Part shown: positions 50,237 through 52,964 of the stretch, piece after piece
Position numbering within the stretch: the first letter of the stretch is position 1
How the letters are laid out: the number at the start of each line of letters is the position of its first letter
Source: an uncultured Bacteroidales bacterium
Lineage (GTDB): Bacteria > Bacteroidota > Bacteroidia > Bacteroidales > UBA10428
Direction of reading: 5' to 3'
DNA: 64,000 bases
NCBI GenBank assembly: GCA_964634105.1
Contig: CAZWIU010000007.1
Location: 2,051 to 66,050, forward strand
Notes under the pieces: generated by a model
The model's database searches: none
Told to the model about the DNA's origin: nothing
The model's input: the letters and a program-made list of their open reading frames with translations, nothing else
Program-made: the position numbers and the translations under genes

Positions 50237-50530
50237 CTAACACCCTTTGGTACATGCACATTCCGATTTCCCACCGTTAAAATACCCCTCGATGATTCCT
50301 TTTGCACAGCCGCAGCCCAATCCTGAAAGCACTGTTATCGCCTGTTGTTCGCAGTTTAATGCACAGGCGCCGCATTCCATACAGTAATCGCGCCTGACTA
50401 TGTGTGCCTTGCCTCCTGAAATTTCAAATACGGCATGCGGACAAACCTTCACACACATCCCACAGGCATTGCATTTTGCCTGGTCTAATGCTAATGTTAC
50501 AACATCTTTCAAGTACACAAAGTCTTTCAT
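50237..50530 (-). CDS. hgcB: mercury-methylation ferredoxin HgcB (2x[4Fe-4S])
   Basis: CNACGMCVKVCP and CMECGACALNCE motifs (C(M/I)ECGA is the HgcB hallmark). The C-terminal tail is Cys-rich (SECACTKGC). It starts 5 nt after the hgcA stop. Confidence 0.85.
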   Translation of the reverse strand: MKDFVYLKDVVTLALDQAKCNACGMCVKVCPHAVFEISGGKAHIVRRDYCMECGACALNCEQQAITVLSGLGCGCAKGIIEGYFNGGKSECACTKGC

Positions 50531-50535
50531 GAGTT

Positions 50536-51645
50536 TTATTTTTTAAAATTACTTACCACAAAAAGAAACAACCCGATACCGGCGAACGAAATCTGAATAG
50601 GAACAAAAGTTCTCATCTCCTTCTTTACACCTGAAAGTGAGGTAAACGTCGAAGCGCCGGTGAAATTCATCGCCATAAAAGATGAAATAGCTGAAAGCAG
50701 AAGAAACCATGAGACAACTTCAAGGACAGTATTACCCAGCAGGTTTAAAACACTTAGTATCACTGATAAGATGAGTCCTGTTAGTAATCCTTTGAAAGCA
50801 AACATCCTAACCGGAATGTATGGAAGAAGAATTGGTGTGATAAGAATGCCTGTAAAATACGCCATAGTAATATAGAGTATGGCGGGCAGTCCCTTTTGAA
50901 CGATCTGATGAAAGCTTATTCCATCCCTGTTAAGTCCCGAAAGTATGGCTATCACAACAAAGGCAACCAATAGTTTGGTGCCTGCATTTACAAAATCAAC
51001 CGGAGTGAGTTTCAGGCGGTCATAAAAATCAAATGTGACCTTGCGCATTTCTGCGGTTGTTTTGTAACCATTGGCAATAAAAGACTTGATATCAGCAGCT
51101 CTCACAGGGCCAAAAACTACATTGAATCCTTTATCTACCTTAACATTCAGTGCGATTGAACTTATATTCTTAACCGTGTTCGATGGCTTATTCAACCTTT
51201 CTTCCGGGGGAGTTTGAGTGAGCTTTTTAACCTGGTAGGCTGAAACTCCAGTTGCTCCGAGCTGAGGCACAATAAGCCTTCTATGGCTGATAATGGAATA
51301 GAGTTTTGTCTGTTGAATCCTGTATACAAGCTCATTCGTGCCAAATGTACCTTTCCCGGCAGCACACCATACGTTTACTCCTTTTGTGTCCAGGACAAGT
51401 ATCCAGGCATTCAGACCATCGAGGTTTTTGCGCAAATGGTCGAACGATAGTTTATAGTTTGCCGACACGAATACATCGGAAGCATCATTGGGATTTCCGA
51501 CTGCATATAGCCCGGGGTTTACACGGTAATTGTTTCTTCCGATCATCCAGCGGACCTTTATTGCCCCAAGTATGTCGACAAAGTTTAAGCGGGTTGCAAC
51601 CTGTTCTACAGCACCCGTCCTGGTCTGAATAATTCCTGTGATCAT
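50536..51645 (-). CDS. hgcA: mercury-methylation corrinoid protein HgcA
   Basis: The cap-helix signature NVWCAAGK lies at 51352-51375 (complement), within PGLYAVGNP...VSANYKLSFDHLRKNLDGLNAWILVLDTKGVNVWCAAGKGTFGT. The C-terminal half has about 5 TM helices. I place the start at the ATG at 51645 (MITGIIQTRTG...), 2 nt after the stop of the upstream gene, rather than at the track start 51708. Confidence 0.9.
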   Translation of the reverse strand: MITGIIQTRTGAVEQVATRLNFVDILGAIKVRWMIGRNNYRVNPGLYAVGNPNDASDVFVSANYKLSFDHLRKNLDGLNAWILVLDTKGVNVWCAAGKGTFGTNELVYRIQQTKLYSIISHRRLIVPQLGATGVSAYQVKKLTQTPPEERLNKPSNTVKNISSIALNVKVDKGFNVVFGPVRAADIKSFIANGYKTTAEMRKVTFDFYDRLKLTPVDFVNAGTKLLVAFVVIAILSGLNRDGISFHQIVQKGLPAILYITMAYFTGILITPILLPYIPVRMFAFKGLLTGLILSVILSVLNLLGNTVLEVVSWFLLLSAISSFMAMNFTGASTFTSLSGVKKEMRTFVPIQISFAGIGLFLFVVSNFKK

Positions 51646-51647
51646 GT

Positions 51648-52096
51648 TTATTTTGCTGAAAATATTTTCTCCATAATACCAACAGCATCTTCCACATATT
51701 TCCGGCAATGGGTATCAAACATACCGGATTCGACTATTCTTTTATGATCTTCCGGATTGTTCAGATCCAAATCATAAAGAAGTTCTCTGCAATTTACCGA
51801 ACCATGTATCTTCTTAAATTCATTAAAAACTCCACGGTTTTATCATACGTCTGCTTCTTCTTACTCTCATCGTCGTGTAAGGCTTTCCCGTACTTCATAC
51901 CAAGCGCCATTAAGGCTCCGGTAACTGCACCGCATACTAATTGCTGGCGACCCATACCTCCGCCGAATGCACACGAAACTTTAAGGCATGTGTCTTCAGA
52001 CAATCCATAGTCTGTTCCAAAAACGGTGAATACCGATTGAGAGCAGTTAAAACTGTTTTGAAAATAGCTAGATGCTTGTTGCTTTTTTGTGGTCAT
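51648..52096 (-). pseudogene. C_GCAxxG_C_C-family redox protein, interrupted by a 1-nt frameshift
   Basis: Frame A (52096 to 51794) reads ...NCSQSVF...GGGMGRQQLVCGAVTGALMALG...KTVEFLMNLRRYMVR*. Shifting one nucleotide at about 51831-51836 gives EFKKIHGSVNCRELLYDLDLNNPEDHKRIVESGMFDTHCRKYVEDAVGIMEKIFSAK*, ending at 51648. This restores the family's C-terminal half. Confidence 0.7.
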
Positions 52097-52521
52097 AATA
52101 ATTGAGGTTTTAATTGTTCCTGAAAAAATTTATTGAATGCTGTTTTTATTTCATCTCTAATCCTTCGGTACTCCCCTAGCACGTATTCTTCATCGCCGAT
52201 AACCATGGCAGGATCTTCAAAACCGAGATGCAGCCGATGCCTGACTTTCCCTGAAAAAACCGGACAGGTCTCATTAGCATGGTCGCACACAGTAATCACA
52301 TAGTCCCATTCCTGACCGAGAAACTTACTTACGCTCTTCGGATAATATCCGGAGATATCAATACCCGATTCCTTCATTACAAGAACAGCCTTGGAACTGA
52401 CCTTAGCCGCCGGCCTTGTACCCGCCGATTGTACTTCAATTGTTTTATCAAACGACTGCAGGAATCCTTGTGCCATTTGGCTCCTGCAACTATTACCTGT
52501 ACATAGTATCAGAATTTTCAT
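52093..52521 (-). CDS. arsC: arsenate reductase, LMW-PTPase / thioredoxin-coupled type
   Basis: The CX5R loop is ILCTGNSCRSQMA. The downstream Cys pair is VCDHANETCP. There is a 4-nt ATGA overlap with the next gene. Confidence 0.85.
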   Translation of the reverse strand: MKILILCTGNSCRSQMAQGFLQSFDKTIEVQSAGTRPAAKVSSKAVLVMKESGIDISGYYPKSVSKFLGQEWDYVITVCDHANETCPVFSGKVRHRLHLGFEDPAMVIGDEEYVLGEYRRIRDEIKTAFNKFFQEQLKPQLL

Positions 52522-52588
52522 ACACTAAATAATTTTGGTTTATAATCAGGTTTCAGGATACATAAAAACCAGAACTATATTGAATGCA

Positions 52589-52924
52589 TTAACAACACTT
52601 ATCATGATTCTCTTCATCTTCTTCTCTATAGAATGCCTCAAACATTTTCTTTGCTTTCCTCCAGGTATTTCTGTTGATGCAATAATTCACCTTTGGAGGT
52701 TCAATTGTACCATGAATAAGCCCGGCATCTTTCAGTTCCGAAAGGTGTTGTGACACCGTCGCTTTAGCAATAGGCAACTCCCTGTTAATGTCGCCAAAAC
52801 AGCACGAATTCAGCGATGAGAGATATTTCAGAATAGCTATGCGAGCCGGATGCGCCATTGCCTTAGCAAAGCGTGCGAGGGCTATTTCATCTTCCTTGTA
52901 ATCGACACTTAATGTATACGCCAT
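52589..52924 (-). CDS. arsR: ArsR/SmtB-family metalloregulatory repressor
   Basis: The winged helix-turn-helix is FAKAMAHPARIAILKYLSSLNSCCFGDINRELPIAKATVSQHLSELKDAGLI. The vicinal Cys pair sits in the position of the ELCVCDL metal site. Confidence 0.85.
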   Translation of the reverse strand: MAYTLSVDYKEDEIALARFAKAMAHPARIAILKYLSSLNSCCFGDINRELPIAKATVSQHLSELKDAGLIHGTIEPPKVNYCINRNTWRKAKKMFEAFYREEDEENHDKCC

Positions 52925-52935
52925 AAAGATATTTT

Positions 52936-52964
52936 TAATTCGTTGTTCGTAAAATTACGAATTA
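52936..52964. promoter_or_regulatory. candidate ArsR operator overlapping the operon promoter
   Basis: TAATTCGT tg TTCGTA aaat TACGAATTA. The outer 8-bp arms are 52936-52943 and 52957-52964. The inner 6-bp arms are 52946-52951 and 52956-52961. The minus-strand TAATTTTA (-7-like box, 52950-52957) lies inside it. The site is 12-40 nt upstream of the arsR ATG. Confidence 0.45.

Follow-up and report, generated by a model that had tools for sequence, protein, structure and literature searches.

An arsR-headed hgcAB cluster with a putative ArsR operator in an uncultured Bacteroidales bacterium

Known hgcAB neighbourhoods and the cluster in the window

Hg(II) methylation is determined by HgcA and HgcB together, and mercury biogeochemistry is concerned with how the expression of the pair is controlled and what its native purpose is. 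The subject of this study is an hgcAB pair encoded on the minus strand of a 64-kb stretch of DNA (the window; contig CAZWIU010000007.1) from an uncultured Bacteroidales bacterium, where it lies downstream of an arsR and an arsC-like gene. In Pseudodesulfovibrio, an arsR-like gene is co-transcribed with hgcAB (Goni-Urriza et al., 2020; Gionfriddo et al., 2022/2023). The regulator of Pseudodesulfovibrio mercurii ND132 responds to arsenic and to treatments that raise S-adenosylhomocysteine (SAH), and the ND132 wild type tolerates As(V) better than the delta-hgcAB strain (Gionfriddo et al., 2022/2023). Gionfriddo et al. also described ArsR-family genes adjoining hgcAB in Bacteroidetes (among them Paludibacter jiangxiensis NM7) and in Ignavibacteriae, sometimes together with arsC, arsB, or arsM. 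Neighbourhoods of hgcAB with acr3, arsC, arsM, and arsR were reported along with three Bacteroidetes isolates that carry hgcA (McDaniel et al., 2020, Figure 6), and in a lake metatranscriptome arsR-like genes were linked to lower hgcA transcription (Peterson et al., 2025).

The cluster spans positions 50237-52924 and reads, from 5' to 3', arsR, the arsC-like gene, a frameshifted C_GCAxxG_C_C gene, hgcA, and hgcB (Table 1). An earlier note on this DNA had interpreted these five same-strand frames, all of which were confirmed at their coordinates, as one unit responsive to metals or metalloids. Its central inference, the co-localisation of ars genes with hgcAB, is already published (McDaniel et al., 2020; Gionfriddo et al., 2022/2023; Peterson et al., 2025), as is the ArsR-like regulator of hgcAB in ND132 that it mentioned, which is co-transcribed with the pair and arsenic-responsive. 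Our analysis adds a frameshift inside the cluster, the prevalence and apparently tight arsC-hgcA coupling of the arrangement in Bacteroidales, a putative shared operator overlapping the promoter, and a conserved cysteine triad in ArsR. We conclude that arsR, arsC, and hgcAB probably form an ArsR-repressed transcription unit in an uncultured anaerobic Bacteroidales bacterium, with co-transcription predicted from gene layout and operator, and that this operon would most likely be metalloid-inducible.

Table 1. Features of the ars-hgcAB cluster and of its surroundings in the window (aa, amino acids; LMW, low-molecular-weight; ORF, open reading frame)
Feature	Position	Strand	Description
arsR	52589-52924	-	ArsR/SmtB-family winged-helix repressor, 111 aa; PF01022, 3e-13
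arsC-like	52093-52521	-	LMW phosphatase-fold arsenate reductase, thioredoxin-coupled type, 142 aa; PF01451, 1.6e-21
C_GCAxxG_C_C gene, frameshifted	51648-52096	-	N-terminal frame 51794-52096 (100 aa, then TAA); C-terminal frame 51648-51830
T5 run, frame break	51825-51829	-	GAG TTT TTA ATG...; the family sequence returns with a sixth T or a -1 slip
hgcA	50536-51645	-	Corrinoid protein, 369 aa; cap-helix NVWCAAGK, residues 91-98; five C-terminal hydrophobic helices
hgcB	50237-50530	-	2x[4Fe-4S] ferredoxin, 97 aa; CMECGA; conserved C-terminal Cys cluster
Putative ArsR operator	52937-52963	-	Core palindrome TTCGTAATTTTACGAA at 52946-52961; third half-site ACGAATT at 52937-52943
-7-like box TAATTTTA	52950-52957	-	Inside the operator; -33-like TTGG at 52976-52979
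117-aa ORF	49778-50131	+	Convergent with hgcB
HydF	48482-49729	+	[FeFe]-hydrogenase maturase
O-acetylhomoserine sulfhydrylase-type enzyme	46836-48134	+	Methionine/cysteine metabolism; PF01053, 440 bits
Carbohydrate-active enzyme	44811-46508		Type IX secretion C-terminal sorting domain (PF18962)
Carbohydrate-active enzyme	54160-56115		Type IX secretion C-terminal sorting domain (PF18962)
Carbohydrate-active enzyme	56286-58529		Type IX secretion C-terminal sorting domain (PF18962)

The identity of the hgcAB pair was assessed with NCBIfam curated equivalog cut-offs, including those of paralogue models. HgcA reached 413.3 bits with NF040863 (cut-off 275), but only 175 bits with the HgcAB-like fusion model (cut-off 285) and 51 bits with the CdhD-type model PRK04165 (cut-off 306). 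Because the paralogue scores remained below their cut-offs, the concern of the earlier note that HgcA might belong with fused HgcAB-like or CdhD paralogues does not apply. HgcB passed NF040864 narrowly (103.1 bits, cut-off 99), so that both proteins lie above the cut-offs of the curated hidden Markov models.

The diagnostic motifs and the approximately five hydrophobic helices described earlier were confirmed in the translations and the hydropathy profile. HgcA contains LDTKGVNVWCAAGKGTFGT, as read from its translation, and a Kyte-Doolittle scan, used in place of a dedicated predictor, placed five hydrophobic segments at residues ~215-367. Relatives were collected in one scan of species-representative genomes, with at least 564 confirmed, and the counts given for loci (numbered with an L) refer to the best 80 of these at least 564. 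Residues N91, V92, W93, C94, A96, G97, and K98 were invariant in 81/81 HgcA sequences, and A95 was present in 77/81. The ATG start of hgcA is the one found in relatives. An extended start at TTG 51708 was rejected, as the extension is merely the out-of-frame tail of the upstream gene.

HgcB carries CNACGMCVKVCP and CMECGACALNCE together with a Cys-rich tail. Its two CX2CX2CX3C motifs (C20/23/26/30 and C50/53/56/60) were invariant in 80/80 sequences, as was Cys75; Cys91 was found in 79/80, Cys93 in 72/80, and Cys97 in 71/80. The tail is of the CxC...C type and not a vicinal CC. Judged by motifs and model scores, hgcA and hgcB are a genuine mercury-methylation gene pair, with methylation as the predicted activity.

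The upstream genes were characterized in the same manner. ArsR scored 59.6 bits with NF033788 (cut-off 55). The CTGNSCRS loop of the ArsC-like protein (C7-TGNSC-R13, CX5R) as well as Cys79, Cys86, and Asp103 were invariant in 57/57 homologues, Cys79 and Cys86 being the equivalents of Cys82 and Cys89 in pI258 ArsC. Full-length matches were obtained to the ArsC structures of B. subtilis and of S. aureus pI258 (1jl3 and 1ljl; E 1e-21 and 1e-20).

Gene order, junctions, and the putative ArsR operator

In silico, the cluster looks like an operon: its genes share one strand and a conserved order, the junctions between them are short, and no terminator was detected inside it. Specifically, arsR and the arsC-like gene are 67 nucleotides (nt) apart, the arsC-like and C_GCAxxG_C_C genes overlap by 4 nt (ATGA), the frame of the latter ends 2 nt before hgcA, and hgcB begins 5 nt past the end of hgcA. 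These lengths, given in the earlier note, stand as coordinates; as translated, hgcA starts 148 nt, and not 2 nt, past the premature stop. A simple consensus scan of 49700-53400 detected no terminator-like hairpin, with 3.0 expected from shuffles, and on this pattern scan the claim that no terminator hairpin separates the genes is borne out. Folding of the arsR-arsC spacer, the stretch after the frameshift, and the hgcB 3' region gave z-scores between -1.0 and -1.9 throughout. No convincing attenuator, frameshift stimulator, or terminator was found in these three regions; a weak hairpin without a U-tract is located in the hgcB 3' region (50166-50186). A scan of the whole window against Rfam came back empty, and hence neither a riboswitch nor a known leader appears to be involved.

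Among relatives, which are overwhelmingly Bacteroidales and in some cases lie on contigs of 1-5 Mb, the compact same-strand order arsR-arsC-hgcA-hgcB was found at 27/80 loci, arsC-hgcA-hgcB at 19, and arsR-hgcA-hgcB at seven; arsC followed hgcB at three. The order arsC-C_GCAxxG_C_C-hgcA-hgcB occurred at 1/80 loci (L036). Counting any same-strand arsR and/or arsC, 57/80 loci had one within 1.5 kb and 68/80 within 5 kb. The ArsR/ArsC link is therefore the rule rather than an oddity in Bacteroidales hgcAB loci. Relatives typically have a 1-nt gap or an overlap of 4 nt between arsC and hgcA, a spacing that points to translational coupling.

The closest relatives embed hgcAB among arsR, acr3, or DGC-methyltransferase genes. 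Locus L001 comprises arsR, a fusion of a DGC domain with an S-adenosylmethionine (SAM) methyltransferase, and hgcAB; L004 has arsR, an IVP-family protein, the DGC-methyltransferase, arsC, an Acr3-type permease (Pfam SBF family), and hgcAB; in L002, hgcAB is followed by an Acr3-type permease. The fusion of the Cys-rich DGC domain with the SAM-dependent methyltransferase lies between arsR and hgcA in L001 (2522-3694), L003 (1533-2717), and L004 (3239-4423), and would place another methyltransferase alongside the corrinoid system under one operator. Additionally, genes of the '23S rRNA intervening sequence protein' family (PF05635) were seen in the ars-hgc clusters of L003 (5608-5979) and L004 (2689-3057), the L004 copy being assigned by Pfam scan and the L003 copy by its visible similarity to that of L004.

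Upstream of arsR, TTCGTAATTTTACGAA forms a perfect 7-2-7 palindrome that ends 21 nt before the arsR ATG. The pattern CGTANNTTTRCG has a single match in the 64-kb window (0.17 expected), and an alignment showed that the window's subclade conserves GTTCGTAnTTTTGCGAACAAC. The broader family pattern CGTA-N4-T[A/G]CG was counted in 965 kb of related loci, where 66 of the 93 sites fell in the 150 nt that precede an arsR start. This zone makes up ~1% of the related sequence, so that ~1 site would be expected by chance, which amounts to a ~60-fold concentration. Such sites preceded arsR at 49/64 related loci that contain the gene, and their distance from the ATG is fixed, at ~24 nt for single copies and at ~58 and ~30 nt for the copies of a tandem. 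The ND132 paper does not mention an operator, a palindrome, or a promoter, and no description of a Bacteroidota ArsR operator was found in the literature searched.

A sigma-70 promoter scan gave 15 hits (10.7 expected) and was discarded as uninformative for a Bacteroidota genome; for this reason, a Bacteroidota consensus was used instead. The -7 element of this group, known from Bacteroides promoters, reportedly reads TAnnTTTG (Bayley et al., 2000). Loci L004 and L010, which belong to the window's subclade, contain a perfect TTTG-N19-TAnnTTTG whose -7 box lies within the operator, at the same place as in the window. With the -7 box inside the palindrome, a bound repressor would occlude the promoter.

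The operator is also found away from arsR. A tandem pair lies 65-93 nt upstream of hgcA itself in L071 (1068-1115), and a copy in L036 (5304-5323) precedes C_GCAxxG_C_C-hgcAB; neither has arsR beside it, which implies control in trans. Furthermore, the operator precedes ArsM-like methyltransferases in L009, L061, and L065, and a 79-aa thioredoxin-like gene in L048, L049, L060, and L068. This spread over hgcA, arsM-like, and thioredoxin-like genes is what one expects of a regulon. The putative ArsR regulon may also include a conserved 247-aa secreted protein (MKK...SGKTVFLVAY...), a new candidate, which is preceded by the operator in L058 (2407-2454), L063 (2388), L071 (6475-6522), L074 (325), and L076 (1446-1493). 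The distribution of the operator provides the strongest in-silico support for the proposed ArsR control of hgcAB in this lineage.

According to the mechanism that we propose, an ArsR dimer would block transcription by binding TTCGTAATTTTACGAA, which covers the -7 box of the sole promoter that could be recognised. The repressor would come off when Cys41, Cys82, and Cys110 bind a thiophilic metalloid, most likely As(III). A single transcript would then encode the regulator, the thioredoxin-type arsenate reductase, and both HgcA and HgcB, of which HgcA would act as the membrane-anchored corrinoid methyl carrier and HgcB as its ferredoxin reductant. Of the metal- or metalloid-responsive unit claimed earlier, arsR-led transcription is thus plausible in view of synteny, overlapping junctions, and the conserved operator; the five functional genes it was said to comprise did not hold up.

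Frame break, internal promoter, and effector

The element between arsC and hgcA had been treated in the earlier note as one gene, 51648-52096, encoding a thiol-rich redox protein that, like the arsenate reductase, was taken to suggest a link between As/Hg handling and methylation. This stretch measures 449 nt, which is no multiple of three, and is therefore not a single open reading frame; its two frames match PF09719 positions 1-72 and 72-118 separately. Adding one T to the T5 run gives ...VEFFNEFKKIHGS..., in agreement with ...REFFSRFIDIHGS... of the intact L013 homologue, and the T6 reading ...KTVEFFNEFKKIHGSVNC... aligns with ...KTREFFSRFIDIHGSVSC... of the same homologue. The intact homologues in L013, L036, and L070 read through the T5 position. 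The exact 100-aa truncated product was called on 11 contigs (JGI 3300023207, NCBI GCA_030154545.1, and Logan assembly SRR21710570), and the DNA at the frameshift site was identical in 4/4 loci fetched. As these assemblies are 100% identical across their overlaps, they probably sample one population. With the gene broken in every assembly that carries it, a functional unit of five genes falls away, and the C_GCAxxG_C_C gene is in all likelihood a recent pseudogene. The proposed redox link is likewise weak: the family was found within 5 kb of hgcA at only 4/80 loci. It lies directly upstream of hgcA in two of them, L036 and, where the contig ends, L002, and follows hgcB in the other two, L013 and L070. 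A literature search connecting C_GCAxxG_C_C to arsenic or mercury returned nothing relevant. The frameshift is thus a caution against taking this gene as a functional partner.

Clusters of other relatives also show decay. In L025, arsC is split into two fragments (~5750-5950), and in L047 (~5400-5700) arsR is either disrupted or has ambiguous bases. It seems that the accessory genes preceding hgcAB are easily lost, like the C_GCAxxG_C_C gene of the window.

Two further explanations of the frame break were weighed against recent pseudogenization. The break sits in a homopolymer run, and the complete identity of the carrying assemblies could reflect one population or even a single data set, as would suit a sequencing or assembly artefact with T6 in the true genome. 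A one-off assembly error is unlikely, given the same T5 in the JGI, NCBI, and Logan sources; moreover, a run of five bases is short for a systematic error and the long open reading frames of the window showed no other suspect break of frame, so that we regard an artefact of either kind as very improbable. We give just as little credence to -1 ribosomal slippage on G_UUU_UUA, by which a full-length protein, and with it five functional genes, would be retained. A -1 shift exactly at the T5 run would give the family-consistent VEFFNEF, the 59 downstream codons remain open and still match the family model, and the T5 allele is fixed across all assemblies. The heptamer is imperfect, however, since the first position of X_XXY_YYZ is G and not U, and no hairpin begins 5-9 nt past the slip site (local fold z = -1.9, slip site included). 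In addition, homologues are ordinary single-frame genes, and an open downstream frame is equally expected after a recent deletion. Recent pseudogenization is therefore preferred.

Several observations weigh against an ArsR-repressed, arsenic-responsive arsR-arsC-hgcAB unit. The ArsC-like protein reached 112.4 bits with TIGR02691, below the equivalog cut-off of 174.3, and is named 'ArsC-like' for this reason; the earlier assignment as an ArsC of the low-molecular-weight protein tyrosine phosphatase type thus stands for the fold and all catalytic residues, but not for the equivalog level. Both promoter elements of the window (TTGG and TAATTTTA) are imperfect, premature termination in the frameshifted gene could lower hgcAB expression by polarity, and no report of a methylation assay of any Bacteroidota hgcAB carrier was found in the literature searched. 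Furthermore, the 67-nt spacer past arsR or the 148-nt untranslated stretch before hgcA could house an internal promoter. TAnnTTTG has two matches on the coding strand inside the cluster, one within hgcA and one, TATGTTTG at 51716-51723, located 70 nt upstream of the hgcA ATG. Transcription of hgcAB partly or wholly from a promoter of its own, with the arsR-arsC neighbourhood as co-location and not as one transcript, would also fit the 21/80 relatives in which hgcAB has neither arsR nor arsC within 1.5 kb and hence can work alone. We nevertheless consider an internal promoter unlikely. TAnnTTTG occurs 44 times in the window, with 62 expected by chance, and since it is rarer than chance one match in 2.7 kb means little. 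The codons GGT ATG TTT GAT (Gly-Met-Phe-Asp) explain the TATGTTTG box, which has no TTTG at -33 spacing, neither an operator copy nor a terminator was found inside the cluster, and in many relatives the junctions between arsC and hgcA, at 1 nt or -4 nt, are too short to accommodate a promoter.

The effector of the regulator raises a separate doubt about the arsenic-responsive unit. The classical ELCVCDL As(III) site is absent from ArsR, in which Cys41 alone occupies the position of R773 Cys32 in a manual alignment, and the closest solved relatives, YgaV and CmtR, are distant (E ~1e-7 only), with the CmtR ligands unmatched. The effector is uncertain for these reasons. It might be SAH, Zn/Cd/Hg, or the thiol redox state, in which case the unit would not be functionally arsenic-responsive. 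This would agree with the response of the ND132 regulator to SAH-raising treatments and with the lack of an arsenite efflux gene in the window's cluster and the remainder of the 64 kb. Three-coordinate As(III) sites arose repeatedly within ArsR proteins. In the window's ArsR, Cys41 at the start of helix 3 is conserved in 56/58 homologues, Cys82 in the wing in 57/58, and Cys110 in the C-terminal tail in 49/58; the adjoining Cys42 and Cys111 are not conserved. The three conserved cysteines fit such three-coordinate sites, and the same operator and regulator family head acr3, arsC, and ArsM-like clusters in relatives. Because arsenic genes share the operator, a putative three-thiolate As(III) site is a reasonable inference, and a non-arsenic effector appears rather unlikely.

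A more far-reaching idea, which we rate as improbable and offer as speculation, is that hgcAB in Bacteroidales and Ignavibacteria is a regular, operator-controlled member of the ArsR regulon, translationally coupled to arsenate reductase and with a native role in arsenic handling. In that case, HgcAB could natively serve, for instance, to transfer methyl groups to As(III) or to guard against As(V), and Hg methylation would be a side reaction. Environmental arsenic exposure would then predict hgcAB expression through the shared operator.

Genomic setting and comparison with known systems

The earlier note, which pointed out that hgcAB in Bacteroidota is known mainly from metagenome bins, had valued this locus as contiguous and well contextualised. 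The window is itself metagenome-derived and not from an isolate, it is identical to a 76.6-kb metagenome contig across the 3,041 nt compared, and with at least 564 relatives the layout is not rare. The nearest HgcA relatives belong to Bacteroidetes/Bacteroidales metagenome-assembled genomes (MAGs), and no HgcA more than 70% identical was present, among the species-representative matches listed. Of the hgcAB carriers found, the nearest one in culture is Marinilabilia salmonicolor MSL42 (L007). Horizontal acquisition of the operon was considered and dropped: its GC content (41.9%) is close to that of the window (41.2%), and hence composition gives no signal of it.

Neighbouring genes of the window include HydF, a 2-oxoacid:ferredoxin oxidoreductase, and TonB, and fit an anaerobic, polysaccharide-degrading Bacteroidota. 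Similarly, the carbohydrate-active enzymes with PF18962 sorting domains (Table 1 lists three) support Bacteroidota origin and a polysaccharide-degrading lifestyle. A search of the window outside the cluster found no acr3, arsM-like, or DsbD-like genes. The 117-aa open reading frame convergent with hgcB is lipoprotein-like at its N-terminus (MARCFTFSTLILILFASC) and contains a Cys-rich stretch (CPEGCYCIWEGN); it had no Pfam match and is an annotated gene in the public contig. Also close to hgcB, past its 3' end and on the opposite strand, lie HydF and the O-acetylhomoserine sulfhydrylase-type enzyme. The latter, a methionine-metabolism neighbour, is worth noting because the ND132 regulator responded also to SAH.

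Among solved structures searched with HgcA, only distant corrinoid iron-sulfur protein (CFeSP) subunits were matched. The AcsC/CdhD-type large subunit of CFeSP (PDB 2h9a, 4c1n, and 4djd) is homologous to the corrinoid-binding domain of HgcA at residues ~24-135, with weak similarity (E ~2e-6). Unlike this subunit, HgcA possesses a membrane domain of five helices as well as a cap helix with a Cys, and its score with the HgcA model is far higher.

Like canonical ars operons (arsR-arsB/acr3-arsC), in which ArsR regulates itself, the window's cluster has the repressor gene first, a putative palindromic operator over the promoter, and a thioredoxin-type ArsC with the triad equivalent to Cys10/82/89. 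It differs from them in the absence of an arsenite efflux gene, in the distal hgcAB, and in an ArsC under the TIGR02691 cut-off. The ND132 locus arsR2-hgcA-hgcB shares with the window an ArsR/SmtB regulator upstream of hgcAB on the same strand. It contains no other ars genes, whereas here the arsC-like and the broken C_GCAxxG_C_C genes lie between the regulator and hgcA. ND132 ArsR2 has a four-Cys site (C47, C49, C86, and C88), in contrast to the conserved C41, C82, and C110 found here; Cys47/49 and Cys86/88 are at roughly comparable places to the cysteines of the window's ArsR. The locus adds no new kind of system, but the putative operator CGTA-N4-T[A/G]CG over the -7 box is a concrete, testable sequence. 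The same association of genes is known from hgcAB neighbourhoods in MAGs of diverse phyla, including Bacteroidetes and Ignavibacteriae (McDaniel et al., 2020; Peterson et al., 2025, Figure 4c). Those reports are descriptive, whereas the prevalence in Bacteroidales, the overlapping arsC-hgcA junctions, and the shared putative operator were measured here.

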